Source of the DNA: Candidatus Kuenenia stuttgartensis
GTDB taxonomy: Bacteria > Planctomycetota > Planctomycetia > Pirellulales > UBA1268
Assembly: GCA_945870505.1 (NCBI GenBank)
Contig: CAMBSN010000001.1
Location: 4,795 to 68,794, forward strand
DNA: 64,000 nucleotides
Direction of reading: 5' to 3'
In this document: positions 5,194-62,618 of the stretch, in pieces
Layout of the letters: each line of letters starts with the position of its first letter
Numbering within the stretch: position 1 is the stretch's first letter
Program-made: the position numbers and the translations under genes
Notes under the pieces: model-generated
Databases searched by the model: none
The model's input: the letters and a program-made list of their open reading frames with translations, nothing else
What the model was told of the DNA's origin: nothing

Positions 5194-5344
5194 GCGTTCG
5201 CGAAGCTCGGAACTGCCCCCGCCCGTCGCTGCATCCCGTAGCACAGGTTTTCAACCTGTGTGTCTTCCCGGTTCGCATTGGGATCGGGTGTGATTCCGGA
5301 AGGGGGAGCAGCCGGATGAGAGGCACGCGCAGAAGCCGGTGAGA
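5194..5344. repeat. Intergenic mosaic repeat, copy A (left module, palindrome 5236-5260, right module)
   Basis: GCGTTCGCGAAGCTCGG and about 84 bp of right flank (GTTCGCATTGGGATCGGGTG.GATTC.GGAAGGGGGAGCAGCCGGAT...GGCACGCGCAGAAG.CGGTGA) are shared at roughly 90 percent (by eye) with 27244-27510. Core palindrome CCGTAGCACAGGTTTTCAACCTGTG. Confidence 0.85.
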
Positions 5345-5498
5345 CTTGTGCCACGTCGCGGTCGCGCCGAAGCGTTTGAGAAGAGAACTCACAAGTCCCG
5401 CCGGCGCCGAGCATGTCGCCGGCCGGCTGCGGGGCCGCTCCGACAAGCGACGATCAACTTGTAAACCGCATGAGCCTCTGAAGCCCGACGAAAAAGCC

Positions 5499-6631: not shown

Positions 6632-6642
6632 CGAGGAAGTCC

Positions 6643-7569: not shown

Positions 7570-7606
7570 AGCCGAGGTCGCATCGGCGGCTTATACTGCC
7601 GGTCGT

Positions 7607-8392: not shown

Positions 8393-8550
8393 AATCACGG
8401 GTTTCGTGCCCCCCCAAGGCCGGGTTCTGATTATTCCGACGGCGCCAGGTTGCATTCGCCTCCGGCCAGCCGGATACTGGTTTCAGCAGTCAGCCTCGGA
8501 CCGGAGAGGGTCTCGCTGACCTACCGCTGACCTACCCATGCTGGTGCCCT

Positions 8551-9633: not shown

Positions 9634-9643
9634 TTCTTTCCGA

Positions 9644-10546: not shown

Positions 10547-10583
10547 GGCAAGTCCGGTCGTGGGGTGGAAATAACGGGTCGGG

Positions 10584-12362: not shown

Positions 12363-12468
12363 GAAGATTCCCGGACTGCCGCAGCCAACATGCATGGATG
12401 AATCCGCGTCGGCCGCTGCCGCACCTACTCCTGTTCGCGGACGAAAGTATACCTCCAACGACAACTCT

Positions 12469-14334: not shown

Positions 14335-14343
14335 CAGGGGGCT

Positions 14344-17309: not shown

Positions 17310-17351
17310 CGCATCCTCCCTGCCGCCTCAAACCCGTGGCCGCATACCAAG

Positions 17352-18608
17352 TCACCTGCCAGACTCCGCCTGCTTTTCCTTGAGTGACCGGATCTGTTCC
17401 TGCTGCCGCTCCTTCTGAATCACGGGATCGCGATTGAGCTGTAGTTCGAGCTTGCCAGGGACGGTGTAGAACGTCTCCACGTCGCCGGTCAGGATCCGCT
17501 CACGGGCATCCTCCCAGAGCCGCGAGAGGATGATCCGTGGATTGCGTTCGTACTGGGGAAGGAGCCGCTGGAAGGTCTCGCTATCCCCCTTCACCCGCTC
17601 CACCACCTGGGTGCGGTAGGTCTTCGCCGCATTGACGACCTGGGCGACCTCGCCGCCGATCGATGCCCCCTCGATCCTCAGCTCGCCAAACGCTTCCTCG
17701 ATTCCCCGCTCGCTGGCCGCGGCCTCGTCCGGGGTGCCGGCCTCGCCAGCCCGCTCAAACCGATCGAGCAGGGCCAGGATCTTCTCCGCCCCCTCGCCGG
17801 CCGTCTCGCCCAGGATTCGCGCTCGATCCTGCTGGGCCGTCACGATCCGCTGTGACCGATCCGACTCGGCGGTGGTGACGGCGTCAAAGCTGGCGATCAC
17901 GCTCACCGGCGCCGACACCTTATCGAGCGTCAACTGGTCGACCGTCAGCCCCGTACCCATTTCCGTGAGCCGCCGCTGCGCCACGGCCGTCGCCACCTCT
18001 CGGTTGACCACGCCCTTCAAGAGATCGTCCGCGGGCAGCTGCGCGATCGCCTGGACGATCCCCTGCTGGGTGGCACAGGCGACGAGGCTCTCGGCGAGCG
18101 GACGCTCCCCCACATTGGTCGTGTAGGCGACCGGATCGGTCACGCGGTACGTCACGGTCCAACGGGCGTGGGCGATGTTCATGTCGCCCGTCACGAGGGA
18201 GCCGTCGCGGACCGGATTGAGCGGCCGGGCGCGAGAGTTACGGATCTGATCCCGGGTCATGCCCTGGTCGCGATCACCCGACTCGTACCAGAACGCCTCG
18301 TCGATCGCGAGCGTCATGGGCCGCGTGTCGATCTTAATAACCTGCTCGAGCGGAAACGGAGCCGCCAGATAAGTGCCCCGCTCCAGCACCCGCTGGCCGG
18401 GGCTCCCCACGTAGTCGCCGAATCGTAGCCGCAGCGCCACTTCGTTCGATCCGACACTGAACGTGCCGCTGAAGGCGTAGGCGATGAGGGCCACGACCAT
18501 CGCGGCCTTAAGGAGGCCAAAACTCACCCGCAGTGCCTCGGCAAGCGACTGCTGGGCGGGATCGAGAGGCTCGATATCGGCCTCGGAACGGTCGGTGGAA
18601 TTCGTCAT
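17352..18608 (-). CDS. SPFH/band-7 domain protein, HflK-like
   Basis: N-terminal TM helix. SPFH core (NEVALRLRFGDYVG..., SLVTGDMNIAHARWTVTYRVTDPVAY, GLTVDQLTLDKVSAP), then a long coiled-coil-like tail. ATGA overlap with the upstream SPFH gene. Confidence 0.75.
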   Translation of the reverse strand: MTNSTDRSEADIEPLDPAQQSLAEALRVSFGLLKAAMVVALIAYAFSGTFSVGSNEVALRLRFGDYVGSPGQRVLERGTYLAAPFPLEQVIKIDTRPMTLAIDEAFWYESGDRDQGMTRDQIRNSRARPLNPVRDGSLVTGDMNIAHARWTVTYRVTDPVAYTTNVGERPLAESLVACATQQGIVQAIAQLPADDLLKGVVNREVATAVAQRRLTEMGTGLTVDQLTLDKVSAPVSVIASFDAVTTAESDRSQRIVTAQQDRARILGETAGEGAEKILALLDRFERAGEAGTPDEAAASERGIEEAFGELRIEGASIGGEVAQVVNAAKTYRTQVVERVKGDSETFQRLLPQYERNPRIILSRLWEDARERILTGDVETFYTVPGKLELQLNRDPVIQKERQQEQIRSLKEKQAESGR

Positions 18609-19609
18609 CGTCCGACCCCGCCCCCTGTGGCCTGCGGGGGACGTCCGGCCGGCTTCCCGGTAGGTAGCCCCTGCCCTGGGTCGCGGTTGAACCAGTCGAG
18701 GATCCCGAGACTGTCTGCCGAAAGCACGAACGTCGTGTTGTGGTCGAGCATCTTCTTGAGCGCCTCCACCTTCCGTAGGAAGATCGCAAACTCTTCGTTC
18801 TTGGCGAAGCTCTCGTACTCCTTCGAGGCCTCGCGGTCTCCCTGCGAGCGGATCGCCTGGGCCCGCCTCTCGGCGAAAGCGAGGATCCTATCCCGGGAAC
18901 TCTTGGCCTCACTGCGAATGGCGGAGGCCTGGGCCTGACCCTCTTGAAGCGCGTTCTCCGCAAGCCGCTCGCGGGTTTTGATCATTGTCTCGAAGATCTT
19001 CTCGGTGGTCGCTTCCGGGAGCACGAGCTTATAGATGCCCACGCTCTCAACCTTAAGGCCGTAGCCGGATTGTTCCAGCGACTTTTCCAGCGCCTGCTTC
19101 GCTTCATCTTCGATCGCGGCGAGTTTGAGCTTGTCGCGGTCGAGATTCACGAGCTCGTCGAGACGGTAGCGACTGATAATGCCGCGGATCTCCCGCAGTC
19201 GGCTGGCAAGCTGACGTGCCGCCTCGCTCGGATCCTTGAGGGTGATATAGAAATCAAGCGGGTTCTCGATTCTCCACGTTAGGTACGTGCGCACGATGAC
19301 GCTCTTGCCGTCGGCGGTCTGCAACTCCTCGATCTTGTCCTCGAGGAGTTGCAGCCGCTTGGAATAGTGGGTGATCTTGTGGATCGGCCACGGCAGCCGC
19401 CACTTCAGGCCGGGTGTGTCCTGCACGCTCCCCTCGTCAGCCTTGTCGAAGGTCGTGCGGACCGCCACCTGGTCGTAACGGACCTGATAGAGAAACATGT
19501 GGGAGAGCAGGGCCGCTGCGATCAGGCAGCCGATCAGGATCGTGAATGAGTTTTTCATGGGTCTGTCGTCTCCGTGCCGCCATGCAAGGCCAGCACGCTC
19601 CAGGGTCAT
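18605..19609 (-). CDS. SPFH/band-7 domain protein, HflC-like
   Basis: TM helix FTILIGCLIAAALLSHMF. YQVRYDQVAVRTTFDK...PGLKWRLPWPIHKI, LTWRIENPLDFY, GLKVESVGIYKLVLPE, RERLAENALQEGQAQASAIRSEA. ATGA overlap with the upstream gene; alternative start ATG 19558 (MKNSF). Confidence 0.8.
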   Translation of the reverse strand: MTLERAGLAWRHGDDRPMKNSFTILIGCLIAAALLSHMFLYQVRYDQVAVRTTFDKADEGSVQDTPGLKWRLPWPIHKITHYSKRLQLLEDKIEELQTADGKSVIVRTYLTWRIENPLDFYITLKDPSEAARQLASRLREIRGIISRYRLDELVNLDRDKLKLAAIEDEAKQALEKSLEQSGYGLKVESVGIYKLVLPEATTEKIFETMIKTRERLAENALQEGQAQASAIRSEAKSSRDRILAFAERRAQAIRSQGDREASKEYESFAKNEEFAIFLRKVEALKKMLDHNTTFVLSADSLGILDWFNRDPGQGLPTGKPAGRPPQATGGGVGR

Positions 19610-21729
19610 TGTCCGAGCAGGGTGTCGAGGGCCGAGGTCGGGTCGCTGAAGTCCATCTGCAGGATCGGGAGGTCCCCCTGGTCGCCGGCGATGATGAACT
19701 TCCGCCGCTCCGCCAGGCCGTCGGCAAGCACCTCGAGGAACTTCCGCACGCGGTAGTAGTTCGGCGACTTTTCGAAGGCCAAAAGCTCCCCGGCGAAACG
19801 CTCGCGGGCGCTGCGTTCGCCGACCGCCTTCGTCCAGCGGTAGCCGCGGGCGGCGTGAATCAGTTCCGCAGCCTCGCCTCGGGCCTCGCCGAGCAGCGTC
19901 TCGATGTCGAGTTCCAGGATCGCGGTCCGCCGAGCCACGGCTGGGTCGTCGCCCACGGTCGTCCGCAGGGCATCGAGTTCGAGGATCGCGGCGTTAATCC
20001 GGTTGCTGTGGTCGACCGAGCCGGCCACCTTCGCCAACATCGTCACAGCTTCTTTCCGACCCGCCTCGATCAGCGTCTCTCGCTCCTGTTGGGCGCCGAT
20101 CTGCCGGTGGAATGCCCGGGCCACCTTACCTCCCGGTGGCTTGAGGACTGTCACCGAAACGCCCACCACGTCAAGCCCCAACCCGAGGCGGTTGGCCCGA
20201 TCCTGAATCGCCTTTTCCAACACGACGCCCCCTTCAGTGCGGCCGCTGGTCAGCAGTTCGTCGAGGCAGTGGCTGACGAAATAGCGGCTCGCCTCCTGCT
20301 GGGCAATCAGGGTGATCGCCTCCCGCGGGGATAGCGAACCTTCTAGAAAGTCGAGGAGGTCGCGGACGCGGTATTGGACAACGAGGTCGGCGGCGATGAC
20401 CGCCAGCCCACCCGCGCCCTCAGCCCGCGCGTCGAGGACCGTCGGGTAGTACTCCATGCCGACCGTGTCGAATCGATCGTCGCCGCTGCTCCAGAGAATC
20501 GCCTGCTGGTTCGCCGAGCGACCGATGGGATCGCTCGAGACTTCGATCTGCAGCACTTTGCCAACGGGGTAGGTCGCGGCAGTCTCGATCGGCCACGGCA
20601 GCTTGATGTGGATGCCGGGCCCCCGGGCGGCCCCCCGCACCGCACCACACCGCATCACCACGCCCTGCTCATCGGGGCCGACGACTACGAGCGTCGACAG
20701 GGCCACCAGCACGGCACCGCCAAGAATCGTGAGCGGCGTGATGGCCCGTCCGAGGAGCCGGTAGAGCCAGCTCCGCGAGACCTCGACGCCGAACTGGTAG
20801 TTGATCAACTCGCCGACCACCTGCCCCAGCGACTCGGGTGCCGTCAGCAGGCCGAGCACTCGGCTGTCGAACGCCGGCCTCGGAACCTCGCCTGGCCGCC
20901 GCGGCCGGTAGGCTTCCAGCAGGCCCGTGAGCAGAATCTCAGACCCGACGAGCATCATCACGCAGGGCACCGCCACCGCGACGATGCGGAAGAACGAGGT
21001 GTCGTCGAGAAGCGCCGCCACGACTGCTCCCGCCAGCACGAGCGCGGCGAGCACGAAGCAGCTCATCAGGTAGCTGGCGCCACCCCGCAGCAGTCGCCAG
21101 GCCCTGACGCGTGTGTAGCCGCTGATCCAGCGAGCGGAGATGAAGGCCACGAACGCAATCGCCGCCGAGACGAACAGGAGCCCCACCGGGCTCGCCCCCG
21201 GCGCGAGTGTGGTTACCACGTTCGGTCCAGCCGCGGCGGCAAGCCGCCAGAACCGCCACACGAGCGCCGCACCGGCGACGATCAGATAGACCGCCACCAG
21301 GAAACTCACCGCCGGAAGCCCGACGCCGAGCAGGCTCGACAGCCGCTGGCGCGCTCGCTGGAGTTCGTCGGAAAGATCGCCGAACAGCACGGACGATGCG
21401 GCGTCTTGCGCCGCGAGTTTCTCCGCGGCCAGGGATTCCCGCCGCTCCGCGTCGTACTGCGCGTAGACCAGCGCCAGAATGATCCAGATCGGCAGTCCAC
21501 CCAGCATGTGCCAGGTCGCCGCCTGGATCGCGGGGCTCTGCGTCCAGAGGCCAACAAGCGCCGTCGCGACCGTCAGTCCCACCTGGATGACCAGGCCGGC
21601 GATGGCGGCATTGGTACCGCGGCGGTAGACGAGAGGATCGTCGATCACGAATGAAGGTTCCGGCTGGCAGGATGCCCACGGCCGGCGCAGAATGCCGCCC
21701 GAGTCTGTCAACGGACTCCAGTTTACCAT
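19606..21729 (-). CDS. Polytopic membrane protein with C-terminal SPFH/band-7 domain
   Basis: The first ~380 aa contain about 7 hydrophobic helices. The SPFH core follows (GPDEQGVVMRCGAV...GIHIKLPWPIE, DLVVQYRVRDLLDF, GLDVVGVSVTVLKPP, AFHRQIGAQQERE). Start is uncertain: ATG 21729 avoids overlap with the divergent gene, while the ORF track gives 21906. Confidence 0.7.
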   Translation of the reverse strand: MVNWSPLTDSGGILRRPWASCQPEPSFVIDDPLVYRRGTNAAIAGLVIQVGLTVATALVGLWTQSPAIQAATWHMLGGLPIWIILALVYAQYDAERRESLAAEKLAAQDAASSVLFGDLSDELQRARQRLSSLLGVGLPAVSFLVAVYLIVAGAALVWRFWRLAAAAGPNVVTTLAPGASPVGLLFVSAAIAFVAFISARWISGYTRVRAWRLLRGGASYLMSCFVLAALVLAGAVVAALLDDTSFFRIVAVAVPCVMMLVGSEILLTGLLEAYRPRRPGEVPRPAFDSRVLGLLTAPESLGQVVGELINYQFGVEVSRSWLYRLLGRAITPLTILGGAVLVALSTLVVVGPDEQGVVMRCGAVRGAARGPGIHIKLPWPIETAATYPVGKVLQIEVSSDPIGRSANQQAILWSSGDDRFDTVGMEYYPTVLDARAEGAGGLAVIAADLVVQYRVRDLLDFLEGSLSPREAITLIAQQEASRYFVSHCLDELLTSGRTEGGVVLEKAIQDRANRLGLGLDVVGVSVTVLKPPGGKVARAFHRQIGAQQERETLIEAGRKEAVTMLAKVAGSVDHSNRINAAILELDALRTTVGDDPAVARRTAILELDIETLLGEARGEAAELIHAARGYRWTKAVGERSARERFAGELLAFEKSPNYYRVRKFLEVLADGLAERRKFIIAGDQGDLPILQMDFSDPTSALDTLLGQ

Positions 21730-21863
21730 CGAGAAAACCACCGGCTGCCAGAGCCTGGACGGAGGTCGAGTCTCGGCCTTCGTGCGGGAACCGCCCCCGA
21801 GCGATCGACGGCCGGTGGTAAGGTGGCCGTCCGCCATCCATACCCCCGGCTTGCAGACAGCCC

Positions 21864-22850
21864 ATGCTCCTCCTCGCCGTCGCCCGTAACGCGTTCCTTG
21901 AGTCAATTCGCCAGCCGGTATTCCTGGTACTCGTGCTGGCTGGCATCGTGGCGCTTGTGCTCAACGTTAATCTGGCCGCCTTCACGCTCGAGGACGATAC
22001 CAAGCTCTTCATCGACCTGGGCCTGAGCACGCTGTTCCTGGTCGGACTGCTCCTCGCCGCCTTCACGGCGACGAGCGTGCTGACCCGGGAGATCGAGAAC
22101 AAGACGGTGCTGACCGTCGTCAGCAAGCCCGTGCCGAGACCCGTGCTGGTCATCGGCAAGTACGTCGGCGTGGTGGCGGCGCTCGCCATCGGCTACTGGT
22201 CGCTGGCGGCCATGTTTCTCCTGGCGATCCGCCATCGGGTGCAGTCGGGTGTCGGTGCCGAAGTGGCCTTCGACCTGCCGGTACTCATCTTCTCGCTCCT
22301 GTTTGGTGGGCTGGCTCTCGCCGGCTCGGCGCTGGCCAACTACCTCCATCGCCGCCCCTTCCCGAGCGTGTTCGTAGTCAGCCTTGCGGCCGCGCTCACT
22401 GCGGCGCTCGGCGTGGTCTGGTGCATTGACCGGAACTGGCGATTCCAGAGCCCTGCCGTGGACTGGAACCCCCAGGTCATGATCGGGCTGCTGCTGGTGT
22501 TTGAGGCCCTCGTCGTGCTCGCCGCCGTGGCGATTGCGGCGAGCACGCGCCTGGGTCAGATCCCGACGCTCCTCGCCTGTCTCACGGTGTTCCTCGTGGG
22601 CCTGGTGAGTGAGTACTTCCTGGGCACAGTCGTGGGGGCGACCGACCGGCCCGCCTGGCTGCGGGCCGTCTGCTGGCCGTTCTACGTGGCCGTGCCGAAC
22701 CTGCAGTTCTTCTGGCCCGCCGATGCCCTCACCCAGGGCCACGCGATCACCGGCGGCTACATCGGCGCCGTCACGCTCTACGCGGCCTTCGTCGCCGCCG
22801 CGATGCTCAGCCTGGCCGTGCTGCTCTTCCAGCGGCGCGACGTCGGCTAG
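21864..22850 (+). CDS. ABC-2-type transporter permease
   Basis: Six or more hydrophobic helices. N-terminal LLAVARNAFLESIRQPVFLVLVL and loop motif TREIENKTVLTVVSKPVPRPVLVIGKYVG. Divergent from the SPFH/ABC cluster. Confidence 0.65.
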   Translation: MLLLAVARNAFLESIRQPVFLVLVLAGIVALVLNVNLAAFTLEDDTKLFIDLGLSTLFLVGLLLAAFTATSVLTREIENKTVLTVVSKPVPRPVLVIGKYVGVVAALAIGYWSLAAMFLLAIRHRVQSGVGAEVAFDLPVLIFSLLFGGLALAGSALANYLHRRPFPSVFVVSLAAALTAALGVVWCIDRNWRFQSPAVDWNPQVMIGLLLVFEALVVLAAVAIAASTRLGQIPTLLACLTVFLVGLVSEYFLGTVVGATDRPAWLRAVCWPFYVAVPNLQFFWPADALTQGHAITGGYIGAVTLYAAFVAAAMLSLAVLLFQRRDVG

Positions 22851-24858
22851 CCTCTACCTCGGCAAGCCGCTCAGCCTCCGAGCGTTCGATCTCTTCGCCG
22901 CAGCGGACGAGGCGGGCCGAGTTGAAAATGACGATCAGGCCACTGACGATGTGCAGGAACGCTGCCATCACCGGAGAGACATAGCCGGCCCCCGCCAGGG
23001 CCAGGAACACGACGATGAAGGCGGCGCCGATCACCATGTTCTGCCGAATAACACCGATCGTCCGCCGTGAAAGCTCGATCAGGAACGGCACGCGGTTGAG
23101 ATTGCTGTTGAGCAGGGCGATGGTTGCGGAATGAATCGCCACGTCGCTGCCAGCAGCGCCCATCGCGATCGAGATGTCACCGGCGGCGAGCGCCGGGGCG
23201 TCATTGACGCCGTCGCCGATCACTGCCACGCGGTGCCCCTGCGCCTTGAGGGCGTCGACCATCTCGAGCTTCTCGTGCGGCAGCACCTCGGCCTTGAACT
23301 CACTGAAGTGCATCTGCTCGGCCACCCGCCGCGCCACGCTCCGGCGGTCGCCGGTGAGGATCACCAGCCGCTTGAGGCCCAGGGCCCGCAGGCGATCCAC
23401 TGCCTCGGCCGCCTCGGGCCGGGCGTTGTCCTCGAGTCCGATCCAGCCGACAAGCCGGCCGTCTCGCACCACGAACAGCACGCTCAGACCATCGGCAGCG
23501 TCGCTGGCCTGCACCTCCTCGATCGCCCGGGCCTCTGCGGCGGCGAGGCCGCCGTTAGTTCCGGCGAGCCAGGCGGCCCGCCCCACCATCACCCGACTGC
23601 CGTCGACGGTGGCCACCACGCCCCGACCGGCCACCTCCTCGAAGACCTCGGGCCTGACCAGCGGGAGATTCGCCCGCCTCGCCATTTCGGTGACGGCCCG
23701 AGCCACGGGATGGCGACTGTCCTGCTCGACCGATGCGGCGAGCCGCAGCAGGTCAGACGCCTCCACGCCGCCGACAGGGGATAGCCGGGTGACCGCGAGC
23801 ACGCCGGTTGTCAGCGTGCCGGTCTTGTCAAACACGATCGCCGTCAGGTTGCGGGCGGCCTCGAGCGTGACCACGCTCTTGACCAAGACGCCGAGCCTCG
23901 CGGCCGCAGAAAGGGCCGCCACCATCGCCGTGGGCGTGGCCAGAATCAGCGCGCTGGGGCAGGCCACGACGAGCATGGCGATCGCCCGACTAAAGGCGGT
24001 CTCGGGATCGCTCCGCAGCGCGAAGAATAGCACCACACCAACCAGCATCAGCACCGTCGGCGTGTACCAGACGGCGTACTGGTCGACCAGCCGCATGATC
24101 GGCGTCCGCGTGCGCTCGGCTTGCAGGATCAGGTCCTTGACGCGTCCGAGCAGCGTGTCGGCACCCGCCTTCGTGACCTCAATGTCGAGAGCTCCGGTGA
24201 GGTTGATCGTGCCACCGAAGACCTCGTCGCCCCCCAGTTTGTCGGCTGGCAGCGATTCTCCGGTGATGCTCGCCTGGTTCACGGTGCTGGTGCCCGCGAG
24301 AATGCGGCCATCGGCGGGGATCGTGTCGCCGGGGCGGACGCGGACGCGGTCACCCGGACGGAGATCCTTGGCTTCGACGACTTCCTCGCGGCCATCCTGG
24401 GCGTTCGCCCCACCCACGAGACGATGCGCCCTCGTCGGCGCCAGTTTGATGAGCGACTCAATGCTCGCCTGGGCCCCAATCGCCGTCCGTTTCTCGATCA
24501 GCGACGAGACGATCATGAACAGCGCAACAGCGGCACTTTCCTGATACTTCCCCGAGGCCGCCGCGCCCACGACGGCGAGGGCCACCAGCGCGTTCATGCC
24601 CGCCTGACCCTTCACCAGATCCTTGACGGCGGCGGCCACCAGCGGCGCCCCCATGAGCAGGGCGGCCAGAGCGGCCGGGATCGCTGGATAAAAATCCTTC
24701 GCCCACAGGAATTGGGCGACGAGGGAACAGGCCAGCAGCGTGGCGCCCACCAACGTGGCGGCGATCTGCAGTCGGAGCGTGCGGCCAACGGCGGCGTCTG
24801 CCGCCGCGGGCGCTATATCGCCGGATGCCGATTCGATGGGGATCGTCGCCGAAGCCAT
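22807..24858 (-). CDS. P1B-type (heavy-metal) P-type ATPase without an N-terminal metal-binding domain
   Basis: TGES (SITGESLPADK), DKTGTLT, SRHPVARAV (HP motif), GDGVNDAPALAAGDISIAMG. The transmembrane metal motif reads VVACPSALILATP. Start at ATG 24858 (MASATIP); the longer ORF-track start is Arg-rich. Confidence 0.9.
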   Translation of the reverse strand: MASATIPIESASGDIAPAAADAAVGRTLRLQIAATLVGATLLACSLVAQFLWAKDFYPAIPAALAALLMGAPLVAAAVKDLVKGQAGMNALVALAVVGAAASGKYQESAAVALFMIVSSLIEKRTAIGAQASIESLIKLAPTRAHRLVGGANAQDGREEVVEAKDLRPGDRVRVRPGDTIPADGRILAGTSTVNQASITGESLPADKLGGDEVFGGTINLTGALDIEVTKAGADTLLGRVKDLILQAERTRTPIMRLVDQYAVWYTPTVLMLVGVVLFFALRSDPETAFSRAIAMLVVACPSALILATPTAMVAALSAAARLGVLVKSVVTLEAARNLTAIVFDKTGTLTTGVLAVTRLSPVGGVEASDLLRLAASVEQDSRHPVARAVTEMARRANLPLVRPEVFEEVAGRGVVATVDGSRVMVGRAAWLAGTNGGLAAAEARAIEEVQASDAADGLSVLFVVRDGRLVGWIGLEDNARPEAAEAVDRLRALGLKRLVILTGDRRSVARRVAEQMHFSEFKAEVLPHEKLEMVDALKAQGHRVAVIGDGVNDAPALAAGDISIAMGAAGSDVAIHSATIALLNSNLNRVPFLIELSRRTIGVIRQNMVIGAAFIVVFLALAGAGYVSPVMAAFLHIVSGLIVIFNSARLVRCGEEIERSEAERLAEVEASRRRAAGRAARPG

Positions 24859-24964
24859 GGCGTCAACTATATCCACGCTCGCCGCGCCGCAACGGACCAA
24901 CAAAAAACCGCGGCCGCCCGAAGGCGGCCGCGGCATGCAATCGTTGTCGCCAAGGCGGGATCGA

Positions 24965-26062
24965 TCACTCGTATGAGCCGGTCTGTGCCGTGCGCAGACG
25001 ACGTGTCCACATCTGGTCGGCGACCTCTTGGTAGCCAAGGTCTCCGATCGTCCCATCCTTCGCATTGCCGAGATAACCGTCACCCGTGTTCTTGACCTCC
25101 GTCGCACCCGACGTGACCGTGTCCTGAACCTTCTCGACGTGCAGGTCGGCGAACAGGATCGGCGCGTAGCCGCCGCCGCCGCCAGCCGTCTTCGGCTGGT
25201 GAAGGGGTTCGATCGCCGTGAACTCGTGAATCTTCACGCCCGCGGTGGTGTCACCGGTCACGGTTCCCGCAACCGTCATGCCGCCAGTGAAACTCTGCGT
25301 CAGCAGGTCGTTCGCCTTGACGACCGGACTGCCGACAAAGTTGACCATGGTCGTCGCATCAGCAGCGAGGACCGGGGTCGCTGCCGCCCGGGCCGGTCCC
25401 ATCAACGCCACGCGGGCCGCGGTCGTATTACCCTGGGCGAGGTGGTTCTGCGTCAGCGGACCATCACCATTCGTCAGGCTCTTCGTGCCCGGGTCATAGC
25501 CGGTCGAGGCCGTGGGGTCGCCGCGGCTGAAGTGCCACGTGGTGGCGTAGTTGGTGTTATGGCCTTGATCCCACACTTCTTTGGCCTTCGCGTCGCCACC
25601 AAAGGCAGTTTCGCCCGACTTGCTGGCGAAGGAGTCGGCACTTTCCCAGCGGCCAGCGTCGATGCCGCTCTGAAAGTTGGCGGTCGTATCGCTGCCACTG
25701 ACACCCATGTACGAGGCCGTCGTCGCGCTGACCTTGTTACGGCTGCCTTGGTCGAGGGCCTTGCCCGGCTGCGACACCTTCTGGGTGATCAGATCGGCCA
25801 CCCAGCCATATGTGCGGACATCGCCGTCACGGCAGTGGTCATAGGCACCGGAACTGTAGTTCCCGTTGTTGGCATTCGCGTAAAGTTCGAATCCGCGTCC
25901 GAAACCCGACATGTTGCTGGCGCTGCCCGAGGCGTTGGCCGCCGAGCGGGCTGACGAAAGGGCTGGCAGCAGCAGGGCCACCAGAACGCCGATGATCGCG
26001 ATCACGACCAGCAGCTCGACGAGCGTGAAGCCGCGACGAACGCGGCACGACGAACGACTCAT
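24965..26062 (-). CDS. DUF1559-type protein with prepilin N-terminal cleavage/methylation domain
   Basis: [45 protein letters not shown], and C-terminal ILFADLHV. Start at ATG 26062 (MSRSSCRV). Confidence 0.8.
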
Positions 26063-26305
26063 GAGAAGAGTTCCTTCTTGAGGGATGTGACCGTTCAGGA
26101 CACGCCACACAGAGTGGACACCAGACCTGACGGGATTCGGATGCAGTCGTATACGCAGCGAACCCCCAAAAGGATCATTTCGCCCGCCGCCCCGTGACGA
26201 AGACTGTCTGTCCGAAGAATCACATCCTAACGCCAACGAAAGGACCAGTCGATCGCGAGGCCAAAAAAATCGGCATTTTCTGAGGAAACCACTCTCTCGG
26301 GTGGG

Positions 26306-26755
26306 CTACCGAATCCGGCAGGATCCATCCGCACAGCCGCCTGAGATGCGGTAACGGTTGCGGGCCACCAGGCGATAGAGGGCGGCCCAGAGCGGCATGC
26401 TGCCTGGCACATGGAGCGGCAGGGCAAGCGGCCACAGGGCTACCAGTCGCCGGGAGAGGTAACGGACGGCCGCCGCCCCCCGCCATTCCCGACCGCGGGT
26501 GTCCACCACCACCATCTCCTCCATCATTTCCTGCCGCGACAACCCCGGAAAGGCCTCCAAAACGCTTGGGTCGTGGAGGGATGTGAACTCCAGCCGGCCG
26601 GTGAGGTCGAGCCGGCGAAGGATCGAGATTTGGCCGCGGCAGAAGCGACAGTTGCCGTCGTAGAGCACGGTATCGCGGGGCGGCAGAGATGGCGGGGCGG
26701 AAGGTGATCGGGCCTGGGCCATGGTGGCGCCCCGGTGGCGATGAATGAACTCCAT
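26306..26755 (-). CDS. DCC1-like thiol-disulfide oxidoreductase (DUF393 family)
   Basis: VLYDGNCRFCRGQISILRRLD (CxxC), then AAAVRYLSRRL and LYRLVARNRYRISG. Alternative start ATG 26722. Confidence 0.75.
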   Translation of the reverse strand: MEFIHRHRGATMAQARSPSAPPSLPPRDTVLYDGNCRFCRGQISILRRLDLTGRLEFTSLHDPSVLEAFPGLSRQEMMEEMVVVDTRGREWRGAAAVRYLSRRLVALWPLALPLHVPGSMPLWAALYRLVARNRYRISGGCADGSCRIR

Positions 26756-26805
26756 GCTCCTAACCGCTCATCGGCACCGCCGCCAACGCGGGCGTCGCTT
26801 TTCGA

Positions 26806-27051
26806 TTAGAGATGGCCGATCGACCCGCGACCCACCGGCCCCGCCGACGGCCGCAGGTTGAGGTTGCCGAAGTGGAGAATCGTGCCCGCTCCGATGGAGA
26901 GCAGCGTCCACGGAGCCCAATCGGGGGCGGTCATCGTCCTGGCCGGCCCGCTGCCATCGATCGGCACCACCACGGCGGAATCGACCAGGAGCATCTCGAC
27001 GCCCAAGACGCAGGCGAAGATCCCCGCCGCCAGAAGAACGCTCTTCGTCAT
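26806..27051 (-). CDS. Small two-helix membrane protein (81 aa), hypothetical
   Basis: MTKSVLLAAGIFACVLGVEMLLV ... APDWAPWTLLSIGAGTILHF. GC-rich third positions. Resembles the small protein at 49450-49725. Confidence 0.4.
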   Translation of the reverse strand: MTKSVLLAAGIFACVLGVEMLLVDSAVVVPIDGSGPARTMTAPDWAPWTLLSIGAGTILHFGNLNLRPSAGPVGRGSIGHL

Positions 27052-27243
27052 CGTTGCCTGCCGCCGCTGGGCCGTATCTCCTCGCCGGGACGTCGACCAC
27101 CCGACGCTCCGCTCCTCATGCATCGACACGGGACAGCTTGCTCCGTGAACGTCCAGGCGACTCGGGCAGGGTGGAACGGTCATGCCGGCCATGCAGGGTG
27201 CGGCCGATGCCCCGGCTCATACGATTTACACGTTGACCCTCGC

Positions 27244-27510
27244 GCGTTCGCGAAGCTCGGGGCTGCCCGTGCCATCTCGCCGGACGCTCGCTGCGGGCAT
27301 CCTGCCCTTCCGCTCGCTCGAAGGAAACCTCGCTTCGCCCTCCAGGCTTCGCTCGGTTTCCTACGCCGCTCGATTGGCACGGGCAGCCCCTCGCTGGCGC
27401 CCCGTAGCACAGGTTGGCAACCTGTGTGTCTGCTCGGTTCGCATTGGGATCGGGTGCGATTCTGGAAGGGGGAGCAGCCGGATCGGAGGCACGCGCAGAA
27501 GACGGTGACA
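27244..27510. repeat. Intergenic mosaic repeat, copy B (most complete: left module, inverted-repeat-bounded module 27259-27390, palindrome 27402-27426, right module)
   Basis: Shares flanks with copy A. The internal segment is bounded by GGGGCTGCCCGTGCC (27259-27273) and GGCACGGGCAGCCCC (27376-27390). Palindrome CCGTAGCACAGGTTGGCAACCTGTG. Confidence 0.85.
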
Positions 27511-27609
27511 TGTGCGGACGCCGGGCGCGGGTATTCCGTACGAGCACTGAACTCGCACATGCCGCCGGCTGCGGATTCGCAACGACGCAAGGATCAGGTG
27601 TGACCCGTG

Positions 27610-29703
27610 TCAGGCGTCGGCAGCCGCGGCGGCGTCGCCATGGTCGGCAACATGGGTCCGCACCGGCCGCCGGTCGGTGTCGGTGCCAGGCACGAGCTGC
27701 GGAGCCCCGGTCGAGGCCTCCACGATCGCCTTGAGTTCGGCGCCGTCGATCACCTCGCACTCCATCAGCCGCGCAGTCACCGCCTCGAGGGCCACGCGCC
27801 GCGTCTCGATGATCCGCCGCACCTTGGCCATGCCCTCGTCGATGATCCGGCGGACTTCCTCATCGATCTCACGGGCGGTCTGCTCGCTGTGGCTACGGGC
27901 GGCGGGCAGGTCGGCCCCGGCGGCGGCGAGGAACGGAGACCGCGGGCTCTCCCGGTACGTCACCCTCCCGAGCCGGCTCATGCCGTAGTCCATCACCATC
28001 GACCGGGCAATCTCGCTGGCCCGCTCGAGGTCGTTCTGGGCACCGGTGGAGACGTCGGCGTAGACGGCCTCCTCGGCGATCGTGCCGGCGAGCAACACCT
28101 GGATCCGACTCTCGAGTTCACTCTGCGTGAGCAGGTAGCGGTCGTCCTCCGGCCGCTGCATGGTGTAGCCGAGCGCCGCGAGGCCGCGGGGGATGATCGA
28201 CACCTTGTGAACGGGATCGGTGTTGGGCAGCGAGTAGGCGACCAGGGCGTGGGCTGCCTCGTGGTAGGCCACCCGCTTCTTTTCGTCCTCGTGGATCACC
28301 CGCTTCTTCTTCTCGAGCCCGGCGGTCACCCGCTCCACGCCCTCGTTGAACTCCTCCATGCCCACGGCCGACTTGTTGTTGCGAGCAGCAAGCAGGGCCG
28401 CCTCGTTGACGAGGTTCGCGAGGTCCGCACCGACAAAGCCCGAGGTGATCCGAGCGATCTGCCCGAGTTCGACGGCTGGATCGAGTTTCACCTTCGACAC
28501 GTGCACCTTGAGGATCGACTCGCGGCCACGAACGTCGGGGCGATCGACGAGCACGTGGCGGTCGAACCGTCCGGGCCGCAGGAGTGCCGGGTCGAGCGTC
28601 TCAGGACGATTGGTCGCGGCGAGCACGATCACGCCCGAGTTGCTGCCGAAGCCGTCCATCTCCACGAGCAGGGCGTTGAGCGTCTGCTCGCGCTCGTCGT
28701 TGCCGCCGACGACGCTCGTCCCGCGGGTCTTGCCGAGCGCGTCGAGTTCGTCGATGAAGATGATGCAGGGGGCCTTCGCCGCGGCCTGCTGGAACATGTC
28801 GCGAACCCGCGCCGCCCCAACACCCACGAACATCTCCACGAAGTCGCTGCCGGAAAGGCCGAAGAAGGGCACGCCTGCCTCGCCGGCGATCGCCTTGGCC
28901 AGCAGCGTCTTGCCGGTCCCAGGCGGCCCGACGAGGAGCACACCCTTAGGGATGTGTCCGCCGAGCACCTGGTACTTCTCGGGGCTTCTCAGAAACTCGA
29001 CGACTTCCCGGAGTTCATCCACTGCCTCGTCGATGCCGGCGACGTCGTCGAAGGTGATCCCGAGATCTTCCTGGGCATACATCTTGCCGCGGCTCCGGCC
29101 GAAAGCCATCGGACTGCCAGCGCCGCCGATCCGCCGCATCATCACGAAGAACAGCACACCAAAGAGGCCCGTCAGGAACAGCATCGGCAGCCAGTTCCGC
29201 CAGGGACTCGGGGGATCCTCGTAGCGAAACGGAACACCGTATTCCTTGAGGGTCTTCATCAACTCCGACTCGGAGTTCTCGCTGGGGAGCTTGGCTGCGC
29301 GGAACCGTCGCTCCCCGTTCGCGAGGCCGCCCACCAGCGGCCGGCGGGGCTGACTCGACTCGTCGGCGGGGTGGGCGGCGGCGATGCCCCGCGGCGCTTC
29401 GCGGACCCTTCCCGACACCTCAAAGGCCCCGATGACCACGTCATGCAAGTCGCCGTAGCGGACCGCCGCCGCATCGCCCTCGGACTTCTGCAGGGTCACG
29501 AAGCGGTCAGGGCCATCCGTCGCCGAAGCTGCGATCAGCCGCTCCAGATCGCTGTAGGAGATTTCGACGTCCGGGGCGACGCTGACAAGGCTGAGGGCGA
29601 ACAGGCTGGCGACGCCGGCAGCCACCAGCGACCAGATGAGGTTTCCACCCACGGCCGGCTTGCGGTCAGCTGGACGCTTGGGATTGTCGCGTTTCTTGGC
29701 CAT
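27610..29703 (-). CDS. ftsH: ATP-dependent zinc metalloprotease FtsH
   Basis: Walker [24 protein letters not shown], Walker [12 protein letters not shown], second region of homology, zinc site HEAAHALV. Start ATG 29703 (MAKKRD) or 29727. Confidence 0.92.
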
Positions 29704-35100: not shown

Positions 35101-35141
35101 CTCACGGGCTCAAAAAATGATCCGACGTCGCGCGTGGGCTC

Positions 35142-35315
35142 GGGGCTGCCCATACCCCGTCGCCGGACGTTCGCTGCGGGCATCCTGCCCTCCGCTCACT
35201 CGATGCTGCCCTCGCTTCGCCATCCTGGCTGCGCTCGGCCAGCAACGCCGGCTCCTGGGGCACGGGCAGCCCCTCTCTGCATCGTTCTTCCGTAGCACAG
35301 GTTGTCAACCTGTGC
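35142..35315. repeat. Intergenic repeat, copy C (inverted-repeat-bounded module 35142-35273 plus palindrome 35290-35315)
   Basis: GGGGCTGCCCATACC...GGCACGGGCAGCCCC. Roughly 90 percent identical by eye to the reverse complement of 56798-56926. Palindrome CCGTAGCACAGGTTGTCAACCTGTGC. Confidence 0.85.
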
Positions 35316-35359: not shown

Positions 35360-37165
35360 TCACTGCCGGTCGGCCCCGGTGTCGAGCACCGCCATGAACG
35401 CCTTCTGCGGAATATCGACGCTGCCGATGCTCTTCATCCGCTTCTTGCCTTCCTTCTGCTTCGCCCAGAGCTTCTTCTTCCGGGAGATGTCGCCGCCGTA
35501 GCACTTCGCCGTCACGTTCTTCCGCATCGCGGAGATCGTCTCGCGGGCGATCACCTTCGTGCCGATCGCGGCCTGCAGGGCGATCTCGAACATATGGCGG
35601 TCGATCTCCCCGCGGAGCTTCTTGACGATCGCCCGGCCGCGGCGGTCGGCGTCGCGGCGGTCGCAGATAATCGAGAGCGCGTCGACTTGCTTGCCGCCGA
35701 CTAAGATGTCGAGTCGCACGAGGTCGGCGGAGAAGTAGCCCACCAACTCGTAGTCCATCGTGCCATAGCCCCGCGTCACGCTCTTCAGCTTGTCGTGGAG
35801 GTCGTAGATCACCTCGCCGAGCGGCAGATCGAAGGTGACCATCGCCCGCGTCGGCGAGAGGTATTCGGTCTTGAGATAAACGCCGCGGCGGTCGGTGCAG
35901 AGCTGCATCACCGGGCCGATCTGCTCGACCGGCACGAGGAAGTTGGTCCGCACGATCGGCTGGAGAAACTCGTCGATCTGCCCGGTGTCGGGCACATCCT
36001 GCGGGTTGGTGATGTCGATCGTCTCGCCGGTCGTCTTCTTGATCCTGTAGGTGACGTTGGGCGCAGTCTGGACAAGGTCGATGTCGTGCTCCTTCTCCAG
36101 CCGCTGCTGGATGATCTCCATATGGAGGAGCCCAAGGAAGCCACAGCGGAAGCCGAAGCCGAGGGCCTCGCTGCTCTCCGGGGCGTATTCGAACGAGGGA
36201 TCGTTGATCGCCAGCTTTTCCAGCGCGTCGCGGAGTTCTTCGAAGTTCTCCCCTTCGCTCGGATAGAGGCCGCAGTAAACCATCCGCTGCGGTGGCTTGT
36301 AGCCCGGCATGGGTGCAGCGGCATGGTCGCCCGGGATCGTCACCGTGTCGCCGATGTGCACCTGCTTGACGTCCTTGATGTTGCACACCAGGTAGCCCAC
36401 TTGGCCCGCCGAGAGCGTCTCGCAGGCCCGCCGCTGCGGGACGAACTGGCCGAGTTCGAGCACCTCGTGGGTTGTGCCCGTCTCCAAGAAGCGGATTTTC
36501 TGCCCCTTGGTGACCGTGCCGTCGATGAGCCGCACGTAGGTGATCGCGCCGCGGTAGCTGTCGTAGTGGCTGTCAAAGATCAGCGCCCGCAGGGTCGCGT
36601 CGGGATCGCCCTTGGGGGGCGGAATCCGCTCGATGATCGCGGCCAAGAGGTCATCGATTCCGATGCCGGTCTTGGCGCTGGCCTTGATCACCTCAGAGGG
36701 CTCGATGGCGAGGCTCTGCTCCATCTCACGGAGCACCTCGTCCACCCGGGCGTGCACGAGATCGACCTTGTTGATCACCGGCACGATCGTCAGATCCAGG
36801 TTGATCGCCGCGTAGGCATTGGCCACCGTCTGGGCCTCGACCCCCTGGAAGGCATCGACGAGCAGCAGCGCGCCTTCGCAGCACGCCAGGCTCCGGGAAA
36901 CCTCGTAGTGGAAGTCGACGTGGCCCGGCGTGTCGATCAGGTTGAGTTCGTACAGCTCCCCCTTGTGCCGGTATTCCATCCGCACCGCTCGGGCCTTGAT
37001 CGTGATCCCACGCTGCCGCTCGAGCTCCATATCGTCGAGCATCTGCTCCTTGAGCTGACGCTTTTCCACCGTGCCGGTCGACTCCAGCAGCCGGTCGGCC
37101 AGCGTGCTCTTGCCGTGGTCGATGTGGGCGATGATCGAAAAATTGCGGATGTGCTTGCAGTCCAT
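35360..37165 (-). CDS. lepA: Translation elongation factor 4 (LepA)
   Basis: IRNFSIIAHIDHGKSTLADRLL, DTPGHVDF, NKVD, and the LepA-specific C-terminus (KCYGGDISRKKKLWAKQKEGKKRMK). Start ATG 37165. Confidence 0.93.
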   Translation of the reverse strand: MDCKHIRNFSIIAHIDHGKSTLADRLLESTGTVEKRQLKEQMLDDMELERQRGITIKARAVRMEYRHKGELYELNLIDTPGHVDFHYEVSRSLACCEGALLLVDAFQGVEAQTVANAYAAINLDLTIVPVINKVDLVHARVDEVLREMEQSLAIEPSEVIKASAKTGIGIDDLLAAIIERIPPPKGDPDATLRALIFDSHYDSYRGAITYVRLIDGTVTKGQKIRFLETGTTHEVLELGQFVPQRRACETLSAGQVGYLVCNIKDVKQVHIGDTVTIPGDHAAAPMPGYKPPQRMVYCGLYPSEGENFEELRDALEKLAINDPSFEYAPESSEALGFGFRCGFLGLLHMEIIQQRLEKEHDIDLVQTAPNVTYRIKKTTGETIDITNPQDVPDTGQIDEFLQPIVRTNFLVPVEQIGPVMQLCTDRRGVYLKTEYLSPTRAMVTFDLPLGEVIYDLHDKLKSVTRGYGTMDYELVGYFSADLVRLDILVGGKQVDALSIICDRRDADRRGRAIVKKLRGEIDRHMFEIALQAAIGTKVIARETISAMRKNVTAKCYGGDISRKKKLWAKQKEGKKRMKSIGSVDIPQKAFMAVLDTGADRQ

Positions 37166-37307
37166 GACGAGATTGTACCGTGAATGGAGGTTTTTTCTCG
37201 GAGTCGCCGGGGGACACGCAGCCCGTCGGAGGACATGCTCATCGCCGGCGGGATTTGCGATTTCATCGCCCAACCGGTACCGAGCAGGTTCCGTGAGGCG
37301 CAAATCG

Positions 37308-37450
37308 CACCGGCTCTTGCGCGTGCCTCCGACGGGCTGCTCCTCCTGCCTATCGTTCGAGGCGCAGGCTGCGGGATCGGGGCGAGGATGGCGAGCGTCG
37401 GCTATCCTGCCGTTGGCGAGCCAACTCGTCCCGTCCCGCAGCCGGATGAG
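37308..37450. repeat. Intergenic repeat, copy D (inverted fragment of the A/B right module plus second-family module 37373-37447)
   Basis: CACCGGCTCTTGCGCGTGCCTCCGACGGGCTGCTCC matches the reverse complement of the A/B right module. GGGATCGGGGCGAGGATGGCGAGCGTCGGCTATCCTGCCGTTGGCGAGCCAACTCGTCCCGTCCCGCAGCCGGAT matches 45240-45314. Confidence 0.8.
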
Positions 37451-37485
37451 GCGAGTTGTTGTTGCGTCTGCAAGACACGCTGCGA

Positions 37486-45202: not shown

Positions 45203-45239
45203 GCGGAAACAGGGCCGCCGTTACGCTGCGGTAGGCGGA

Positions 45240-45314
45240 GGGATCGGGGGGAGGCCGGCGAGCGTCGGCTATCCTGCCGTTGGCGAGCCGACTCATCCCG
45301 TCCCGCCGCCGGAT
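45240..45314. repeat. Intergenic repeat, copy E (second-family module)
   Basis: GGGATCGGGGGGAGGCCGGCGAGCGTCGGCTATCCTGCCGTTGGCGAGCCGACTCATCCCGTCCCGCCGCCGGAT is about 90 percent identical by eye to 37373-37447. Contains a bulged stem GAGCGTCGGCT/AGCCGACTC. Confidence 0.8.
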
Positions 45315-45375
45315 TTCGCGAGTGCAGTCATGGGGTGTCGGGGTACGATAGGTGCTCCTCCGAGGAGACCCTCTC

Positions 45376-56683: not shown

Positions 56684-56797
56684 CGAGCCCTCCACGAGCA
56701 ACGGATTGATGAAGCCCGCGGTTGGACGGTGACTCCGGCCGCCATCCCCTCGCTGGCGCTCGGGGCTTGCTGAGTGCGTCCAGCGAGGTATCAGCGA

Positions 56798-56975
56798 GGG
56801 GCTGCCCGTGCCCGGGAGCCGGCGTTGCTGGCCAGCAAAGCCAGGATGGCGAAGCGCAGCCAGCATCGAGTGAGCGAAGGGCAGGATGCCCGGAGCGAAC
56901 GTCCGGCGACGGGCATGGGCAGCCCCGAGCGGCGGCCGACGCCGGTGAGGCACAGGTTGAAAACCTGTGCTACGG
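56798..56975. repeat. Intergenic repeat, copy F (inverted-repeat-bounded module 56798-56926 plus palindrome 56950-56975; opposite orientation to copies B and C)
   Basis: GGGGCTGCCCGTGCC...GGGCATGGGCAGCCCC. Palindrome GCACAGGTTGAAAACCTGTGCTACGG. Confidence 0.85.
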
Positions 56976-62528: not shown

Positions 62529-62577
62529 GACGCCGGTGCCTCCGTGAGTGCCTGGCGAGCGACACCGATCGAAGGCG

Positions 62578-62603
62578 GCACAGGTTGAAAACCTGTGCTA
62601 CGG
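62578..62603. repeat. Solo copy G of the palindromic core
   Basis: GCACAGGTTGAAAACCTGTGCTACGG is identical to the core at 56950-56975. Lies between convergent gene ends (62528 and 62619). Confidence 0.85.
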
Positions 62604-62618
62604 TGGAAGGCCTATGAC

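Follow-up and report, generated by a model that had tools for sequence, protein, structure and literature searches.

Short palindromes headed by the tetranucleotide GTAG are the signature of the GTAG-tagged class of repetitive extragenic palindromes (REPs), according to two earlier surveys (PMC2817692, PMC3733652). REPs typically exceed 100 copies per genome (PMC2817692). GTAG repeats are on record from several phyla, Planctomycetes (R. baltica) and Chloroflexi among them, and head-to-tail REP dimers are called rare (PMC3733652). The REP of S. maltophilia is cleaved in vitro, in a GTAG-dependent manner, by TnpA-REP, a REP-associated tyrosine transposase, or RAYT (PMC8266576). In P. putida and P. 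fluorescens composites made of a degenerate GTAG-1 REP and an unrelated stem-loop are repeated, and form inverted repeats around a RAYT gene (PMC3733652). Here we describe a set of hairpin repeats found in 64,000 nucleotides of the planctomycete assembly GCA_945870505.1, filed under Candidatus Kuenenia stuttgartensis (contig CAMBSN010000001.1, positions 4,795 to 68,794; the window hereafter). We estimate at about three in four the probability that these hairpins are GTAG-tagged REPs, spread in trans by a RAYT, and set beside two separate structured repeats, called M and R, in composite loci such as that at 27244-27510.

The window, 67% in G+C, contains five matches to the core GCACAGGTT-N3-AACCTGTGC at up to 2 mismatches, while shuffled sequences give 0.01. 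The first-pass annotation of this DNA had listed five core copies in two orientations, and the count holds. A looser core pattern returned the identical five matches and nothing further, and a scan of the window in which GT[AG]G could precede any perfect stem of 8 bp closed by a loop of 3-5 nt found the five REPs only. Cores on the plus strand lie at 5241, 27407 and 35295, each directly 3' of CCGTA; cores in the opposite orientation lie at 56950 and 62578, and each is then followed by TACGG. The GTAG hairpins start at 5238, 27404 and 35292 on the plus strand, and at 56973 and 62601 on the minus strand. The REP unit spans 23-24 nt, and consists of the GTAG head, a perfect 8-bp stem extended by one G-C or G-T pair, and a loop of 3 nt. 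Each copy folds into a 9-bp hairpin leaving GTA unpaired (-7.6 to -9.5 kcal/mol as DNA, z between -3.1 and -6.9). The head is found in all five copies, and is the asymmetry which lets the orientation be called. A stem of 8 bp or more with a variable 3-nt loop had been noted at first; the stem stands, but the loop is constrained, its third base being C in 89 of 97 copies (loop NNC). Pyrimidines abound in the 5' flank, whose position -1 is C in 75% of copies, and the 3' flanks are a mixture of C and T lacking T-runs. REPs in the window are either single, or arranged head-to-tail around M.

Genes in the window were called by the G+C content at third codon positions (GC3) of reading frames, together with Pfam matches on the flanking genes, and the neighbours of the repeats are ordinary chromosomal genes. 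As maintained by the first reading, the REPs are extragenic: all five reside beyond gene 3' ends, and the TAG stop codon of the open reading frame (ORF) 56970-58604, on the minus strand, is supplied by the GTAG of REP D. Orientation with respect to the upstream gene is mixed, being sense for A, D and E, and antisense for B and C. The same preference is seen on a larger scale. In 408 kb of DNA, made of the window and 60 loci from related planctomycete metagenome-assembled genomes (MAGs), 3 of 102 exact cores fall within predicted coding sequence and 99 outside, whereas coding sequence covers 70% of the bases. No intrinsic-terminator pattern was found around A and B, and no U-tract follows any REP copy.

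One genome per species was scanned with the pattern GTAGCACAGGTT-N3-AACCTGTG. The exact core occurs in more than 93 stretches of the collection and, among the matches listed, mostly in a few MAGs of Planctomycetota, chiefly of freshwater origin; further carriers among these matches belong to Chloroflexota, Desulfobaccales and Cytophagales. Three related, fragmentary MAGs host at least 42, at least 26 and at least 18 exact copies, compared with 5 in the 64-kb window. Contigs of related MAGs often end within or beside REP or M units (L004, L018, L020, L053, L057, L058, L072 and others); both repeats seem to break short-read assemblies, and the copy numbers of MAGs are therefore underestimates.

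RAYT genes flanked by the core were found in other genomes. In a Planctomycetota locus (L003) a gene has the exact core and a GTGG variant placed symmetrically on its two sides, in the order REP2> REP1> gene <REP1 <REP2. In a Cytophagales locus (L022) both sides of an ORF of 220 aa carry arrays in which the exact 23-mer alternates with an inverted second REP type. The two encoded proteins score 80.3 and 81.4 bits against the NCBIfam model for the REP-associated tyrosine transposase (NF047646, cut-off 80), and 27.2 and 22.9 bits against Pfam Y1_Tnp (cut-off 23), one thus above the threshold and one just below. A protein search with the L003 RAYT retrieved 443 relatives at E<=1e-10, many of which are named RayT. 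Inspection of three relatives (Planctomycetes, Desulfobaccales and Chloroflexi) showed flanking hairpins that share the foot GT[AG]G-(C/A)ACAG..CTGT(G/T), with a different distal stem. The hairpin of the window thus probably belongs with those REPs that a single, widespread clade of RAYTs serves, and conservation of the hairpin foot may account for the identical 23-mer in several phyla. The L003 and L022 RAYTs are 31% identical, though both are flanked by the exact core. Either the hairpin has been conserved over a long time, or it has passed from phylum to phylum.

Some of the loci deserve mention on their own. The identical 23-nt REP was seen in AT-rich Cytophagales, both at L022:3800-5210 and in L087 (Arcicella sp. 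LKC2W); the second REP with which it alternates in the L022 arrays is GTAGCACAGACTTTCAGTCTGTG. The regular spacing of the L022 copies recalls a CRISPR array, but this was ruled out, as the units are alternating REP-A and REP-B sequences placed on both sides of the RAYT gene. In three Chloroflexota MAGs (L035, L039 and L083) the palindrome, GTAGCACAGGTT-N3-AACCTGTGCTAC, is fully symmetric, each strand having its own GTAG head; the sites are apparently syntenic, their flanks being 77-80% identical. At L003:1323-3704 (MAG contig JACRIM010000039.1) one ORF of 793 aa encloses the RAYT gene together with its four flanking REPs, as an in-frame insert of about 270 codons devoid of stop codons. By eye, the two ends of this ORF resemble PurH halves (IMP cyclohydrolase and AICAR transformylase).

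The closest described systems are the REPtrons of the S. maltophilia group (Nunvar 2010, PMC2817692; Di Nocera 2013, PMC3733652; Corneloup 2021, PMC8266576), in which the unit is the same, 23 nt with GTAG head, 8-bp stem and 3-nt loop. Like GTAG REPtrons, the repeats described here are extragenic, mostly located downstream of genes and, in related MAGs, present in at least 18 to 42 copies, and in L003 they flank the RAYT gene in inverted orientation. They differ because window copies are single or head-to-tail around a structured spacer of 140 nt, because the same 23-mer recurs across Planctomycetota, Chloroflexota, Desulfobaccales and Cytophagales, and because no RAYT has been seen yet in the lineage of the window. 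Intergenic mosaics of REPs with conserved linker motifs are also formed by the bacterial interspersed mosaic elements (BIMEs) of E. coli and by the REPINs of Pseudomonas fluorescens. Inverted REP pairs exist in relatives, for example in L013 and L022, where the REP is coupled to an inverted second type (CCGCAGGTT..., or CACAGACT... in L022), as in Y/Z REPs and REPIN doublets. In the window, in contrast, alternating pairs are missing, and the linkers M and R are long, structured and also free-standing, which BIME linkers are not. The proposal that the family is REP/BIME-like or MITE-like (MITE stands for miniature inverted-repeat transposable element) is thus sustained for REPs by anatomy, extragenic location, the copies counted in related MAGs and RAYT linkage, and not for a strict BIME layout. 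The novelty question has a similar outcome: the family matches GTAG-tagged REPs (PMC3733652) as a class, and no match was found for this sequence. The stem CACAGGTT does not appear in the text or supplements of PMC3733652; the family consensus sequences of that paper stand in its Figure 1, which lies outside this check. Literature searches for the core, and for the loop sequence of M, gave chance primer matches only.

The second component of the locus is M. Copy B had been credited with a 132-bp insertion relative to copy A. The net extra length is 116 nt, and the extra piece is a discrete repeat of about 140 nt, M, which lies next to REPs C and D as well, a fact unremarked at first. M folds into an outer stem of 16-18 bp, a 10-bp hairpin with loop TCC, and a 14-bp hairpin capped by GCCA-TCC-TGGC. 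A covariance model identified 35 copies in loci selected for REPs, all from six related MAGs, with scores of 110-150 bits in sense and 19-41 bits in antisense. In this set all the REPs flanking M share orientation in 27 of 28 cases, the exception (L065) having an inverted REP in addition, and wherever a REP adjoins M, orientation and spacing are fixed. The impression that M is always attached to REPs, conveyed by 27 of 28 copies in REP-fetched loci, is an ascertainment artefact. Metagenomes were searched with a pattern internal to M, chosen regardless of REPs, and more than 100 M copies were found; a GT[AG]G hairpin lies within 100 nt of M in 9 of the 95 full-length copies of this sample. M is therefore a repeat family of its own. 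As sampled, it is confined to GC-rich contigs, mostly of freshwater metagenomes, and in related Planctomycetota MAGs.

The structure of M is well conserved through changes in sequence. In an alignment of 101 copies 41 of 46 base pairs have changed on both sides, with a covariation score of 0.267 versus 0.082 for shuffles (0/500 reach 0.267) and at most 0.057 for slid controls. The alignment was fitted to the covariance model, which favours structure; when 28 copies were aligned independently with MAFFT, the result was the same. G-T pairs (95) are not in excess over A-C mismatches (106). M copies are found in convergent intergenic regions (23), tandem contexts (21) and divergent regions (4), and in tandem contexts they are sense in 10 and antisense in 11 cases. 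Lack of a G-T excess and random orientation with respect to genes argue for M being a palindrome at the DNA level, more than an RNA made from one strand. The palindrome could be kept by selection for folding of either strand, or by templated correction from one arm to the other. Conservation ends sharply at GCTCGGGG...CCCCTCGC, and the terminal inverted repeats are GCTCGGGGCTGCCC...GGGCAGCCCCTCGC.

M had no match in Rfam or in the searchable literature. Within the whole window Rfam recognised only a tRNA at the gathering threshold, and at E<=10 the regions of A, B and 37.2-37.5 kb gave only generic noise from long-hairpin miRNA precursors. The possibility that M is an attC site of an integron was discarded, since by inspection R-box ends (GTTRRRY) are missing, and copies are 8-21 kb apart among housekeeping genes. 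In its general design M recalls ERIC/IRU, Correia (NEMIS) and RPE elements, being a sharply delimited, imperfect palindrome of about 140 nt, extragenic, found in either orientation, multi-copy, with neither coding capacity nor a known mobiliser. It differs from them because there is no sequence relation, no duplication of TA or of any other target, and because M carries two internal covarying hairpins with the shared tip C(A/C)TCC(T/A)G. The order REP>-M-REP> mimics the left and right ends of IS200/IS605 insertion sequences, set in direct orientation around a cargo. By analogy with these elements, and with their non-autonomous derivatives, the palindrome-associated transposable elements (PATEs), a Y1/HUH enzyme might read subterminal hairpins on one strand, using the tetranucleotide 5' of the hairpin as a guide. 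Unlike IS200/IS605 elements and PATEs, there is no tnpA or tnpB gene, cleavage sites are not defined, and most M copies have no REP on either side. The P. putida and P. fluorescens composites likewise join a GTAG REP to a structured sequence unrelated to it, and likewise recur as a whole; here, however, the partner M is much longer, independent, and not seen around any gene.

R, the third component, measures about 150-215 nt and is present in three copies in the window. It opens with the spacer TGTCTTCCCGGTTCGCATTGGG.TCGG, which elsewhere links REP to M. The long stem of copy A is formed by GCCGGTG.GACTTGTG and CACAAGTC.CGCCGGC. Past 27508 the sequence of B departs from that of A, yet the long stem of R is kept. 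In six copies the distal 8 bp of the stem covary (ACTTGTG/CACAAGT, ACGTGTG/CACACGT, ACATGTGCG/CGCACATG). M and R are undescribed structured repeats, each an element in its own right. R precedes lpxD, lepA and a small gene, a location which evokes a promoter or 5' leader. This was rejected: relative to the next gene, R is co-directional three times and convergent three times, and no sigma-70-like site is present; a sigma-54 reading of the GGCACG-N-GC motif in R is, by eye, off by one base. The third R copy (37217-37390) overlaps, at 37217-37303, the first 29 codons or so of the longest lepA ORF (35360-37303, TTG start), in which the Pfam GTPase match begins at residue 50; the true start of lepA is probably further downstream. 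A further palindromic repeat, M2, abuts this copy of R. Its two copies are 88% identical, their tip recalls the CATCCTG tips of M, and M2 was also seen in L016, L030, L200 and L177. Coordinates of all features are given in Table 1.

Table 1. Repeat units and associated features in the 64-kb window
Feature	Coordinates	Strand	Neighbouring genes	Remarks
REP A	5238..5261	+	sigma-70 gene and lpxD	GTAG and 9-bp stem, loop TTC, closing pair G-T
REP B	27404..27427	+	small ORF and ftsH	GTAG and hairpin, loop GGC, closing pair G-T
REP C	35292..35315	+	MFS transporter gene and lepA	loop GTC; 45 nt past the stop codon of lepA (lepA on opposite strand)
REP D	56950..56973	-	glnA and hypothetical ORF	convergent intergenic region with glnA; GTAG holds the stop of ORF 56970-58604(-)
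REP E	62578..62601	-	BNR-repeat gene and GNAT gene	solitary; about 17 nt past the stop codon of GNAT gene 62619-63920(-)
M remnant, copy A	5211..5231	+		AACTGCCC / CCGCCCGTCGCTG, stubs of both outer-stem ends (read from the alignment)
M, copy B	27255..27396	+		structured repeat of about 140 nt
M, copy C	35138..35279	+		12 nt upstream of REP C
M, copy D	56792..56930	-		follows REP D on the minus strand, 20-nt spacer between
Left flank L, copy A	5194..5210	+		GCGTTCGCGAAGCTCGG; same motif as the usual REP-to-M spacer (GGTTCGC..GCTCGG)
Left flank L, copy B	27244..27260	+		identical to the A flank; its final bases already belong to M, as its start
R, copy A	5261..5476	+		block of about 215 nt opening with the REP-to-M spacer; 93% identical to the L045 copy
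R, copy B	27427..27584	+		first 82 nt 91% identical to A; rest diverged, keeps covarying hairpin ACATGTGCG / CGCACATG
R, third copy	37217..37390	-		without REP; upstream of lepA; abuts M2
M2	37366..37456	+		91 nt, palindromic, tip CGGC-TATCCT-GCCG; second copy at 45233-45323
Left inverted repeat, B composite	27214..27243	+		30 nt, GGCTCATACGATTTACACGTTGACCCTCGC
Right inverted repeat, B composite	27587..27615	-		about 73% complementary to the left one (hand count); overlaps ftsH stop codon 27610-27612

The B composite (27244-27584, 341 nt, between the small ORF and ftsH) reads in order spacer, M, REP and R. Most of the similarity between A and B seen by the first-pass annotation is confirmed. 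The 17-nt left flank is exactly shared (5194-5210 and 27244-27260); the right flank, put at about 84 nt with some 90% identity, is 91.5% identical over 82 nt, or 92% over 108 nt when the core is included. The end of element B had been set at 27510. The flank similarity is real, but the structural likeness to A runs on to about 27584. A is indeed reduced, as had been seen; what it retains (5211-5231) is, rather than a degenerate half-site, the stubs of both M ends. Since both stubs are left, the A locus looks like a deletion derivative of an M-bearing form, and not like an empty site. The notion of a mosaic is sound as regards modularity, but not as a single element with an insertion, because at least three independent families (REP, M and R) are juxtaposed.

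These loci differ between relatives. In the syntenic contig L045 (MAG ZE-3NOV15-plancto6) the flanks of the B composite have the same orientation (82% and 92% identity), whereas the interior is reversed (77% over 342 nt), and is nearer to copy A of the window (93%) than to copy B. The interior may have flipped by recombination between the inverted repeats, or each of the two lineages may have acquired its composite separately, in the middle of a palindrome that was already there. An assembly artefact is unlikely, because the inverted repeats share no long exact words. The 30-nt inverted repeats that surround A and B were considered as termini of a MITE of high copy number; this was abandoned, as only 3 matches were found at up to 7 mismatches. 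At one orthologous intergenic site, one MAG has three REPs and M, another one REP and one variant REP without M, which implies gain or loss of modules. MAG EUL_327 (L007), in turn, retains REP E at the orthologous site. There the REP with its flanks (62540-62625 versus L007:1728-1813) is 96.5% identical, with 3 differences in 86 nt, a small sample, and the surrounding 3 kb are about 87% identical. L045 also holds the counterpart of window positions 6353-9642 and, within about 60 nt, that of 26315-27243. The 16.7 kb between them in the window (9642-26315; about 11 genes, mostly on the minus strand) do not separate the two segments in L045, and are either an insertion in the window genome, or the trace of a deletion or rearrangement in the relative.

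Hairpins just past stop codons may work as RNA. The first-pass annotation had named mRNA 3'-end stabilisation, termination or a small structured RNA as possible roles. Some E. coli REPs have documented roles as 3'-end exonuclease barriers, as attenuators, or in ribosome stalling after the stop codon, and it is conceivable, though unlikely, that the hairpins, M and R are kept mainly for such tasks. The five REPs all lie past gene 3' ends, D overlapping a stop codon and E following one at about 17 nt, M is mostly found in convergent (23) or tandem (21) and rarely in divergent (4) settings, and the hairpins are stable. The same location would, however, be left equally by purifying selection on a selfish insert. 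Moreover, no U-tract or intrinsic-terminator pattern accompanies the copies, orientation is mixed both for REPs (A, D, E versus B, C) and for M (10 versus 11), the figures for G-T pairs and A-C mismatches (95 and 106) speak against selection on one transcribed strand, and neither the asymmetric GTAG head nor the linkage to RAYTs would be explained. Effects of REPs on the host at mRNA 3' ends are possible, but receive no support from terminator features or orientation. M, and perhaps R, might otherwise be a multi-copy gene for a structured non-coding RNA, or a guide or regulatory RNA left by a mobile element, and not a repeat at the DNA level. To this view, which we regard as distinctly improbable, one may ascribe the strong covariation, the invariant loops set on varying stems (TCGCCGGACGTTCGC, and CATCCTG twice), the sharp ends, the sense scores of M, far above the antisense ones, and the covarying long stem of R. 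Yet the central loop of M was the search pattern, and its invariance is partly due to construction. Rfam gave no match to M even at E<=10, no promoter-like or terminator-like signal was found, orientation relative to neighbouring genes is random for M and R alike, G-T and A-C counts are equal, and genomes carry many M copies in unrelated contexts.

Size (about 140 nt), copy number, extragenic location and terminal inverted repeats of 16-18 bp would suit M as a classical MITE, a deletion derivative of a DDE-type insertion sequence moved via its terminal inverted repeats, and the larger B composite is bounded by inverted repeats of 30 nt. This is very unlikely to be the case. No target-site duplication was detected around 49 M copies, the best flanking direct matches being of 2-5 nt, at chance level; the arms of M were not found around any gene, nor was a longer element with M ends, across loci totalling about 1.4 Mb; the 30-nt inverted repeat does not form a repeat family (3 matches at up to 7 mismatches), and covarying internal hairpins are atypical of DDE-type MITEs. 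A perfect 9-3-9 palindrome of conserved sequence also recalls an operator for a dimeric transcription factor. None of the five copies is divergent or clearly promoter-proximal, two lie in convergent regions and one on a stop codon, and an operator has no use for an asymmetric GTAG head, tandem arrays, dozens of copies per genome or RAYT flanks. Position and the asymmetric head rule it out for practical purposes. Finally, M may be a new, functionally constrained structured element of freshwater Planctomycetota beside which REPs and RAYTs dock, composites such as B being invertible cassettes bounded by the 30-nt inverted repeats. Specific docking would explain why orientation and spacing are fixed, and M would be a candidate single-stranded DNA scaffold recognised by a protein or transposase, or a candidate small RNA. 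We consider this scenario rather unlikely, and its inversion switch is weaker than the REP/RAYT account.

Several observations do not sit easily with the REP/RAYT account either. Searches for a RAYT gene, with an E. coli RAYT sequence and six confirmed RAYTs as queries, found none in the window (64 kb), the 60 related loci or the 779 kb of metagenome contigs bearing M. No clean pair of empty and filled sites was found for a single REP. None of the window copies forms the alternating or inverted pairs of BIME and REPIN layouts, and single or head-to-tail REPs differ from the inverted pairs regarded as the usual mobile unit. The fixed geometry of REP and M has no demonstrated cause. Copy numbers are lower bounds, since the related MAGs are fragmentary, and the gene mask of the extragenic test was deliberately crude, being GC3-based.

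According to the REP/RAYT account, which we favour and model on the systems of E. coli, S. maltophilia and Marinomonas, the 23-nt unit, with consensus GTAG-CACAGGTT-NNC-AACCTGTG, would fold on single-stranded DNA into a perfect hairpin of 8-9 bp with an unpaired GTA(G) foot. A RAYT, an HUH/Y1 tyrosine transposase plausibly encoded once elsewhere in the genome, would bind the folded hairpin; guided by GTAG it would cut nearby, and the REP would be copied in trans. New copies would survive where harmless, mainly just past gene 3' ends. In the freshwater planctomycete lineage REPs may have settled beside M and R, or co-propagated with them, and the locus 27244-27510 would be one such composite, reoriented or replaced since the split from a close relative. 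We infer the presence and action of a RAYT in this genome from hairpin anatomy, distribution and RAYT linkage in other genomes; the route by which M and R spread is likewise inferred. GTAG REPs, RAYTs, their presence in Planctomycetes and the occasional fusion of REPs to other stem-loops are already published (PMC3733652). This REP family with its cross-phylum foot, and the predominance of a head-to-tail arrangement around a long structured spacer, are new.

In practical terms, these hairpins should be labelled in annotation as REPs, and not as regulators or small RNAs. The reach of the REP/RAYT system would be extended to uncultured freshwater Planctomycetota, where the coincidence of the repeats with many contig ends of related MAGs helps to explain why assemblies are fragmented. 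In at least four phyla one RAYT clade keeps the same foot on its hairpins (GTAG plus CACAG), which is useful for the study of substrate recognition by domesticated transposases. M, in which covariation is unusually clean, is the one component that might merit separate study. It provides a test case in which selection on the folded strand, and arm-to-arm copying during replication, may be set against each other as sources of compensatory changes.

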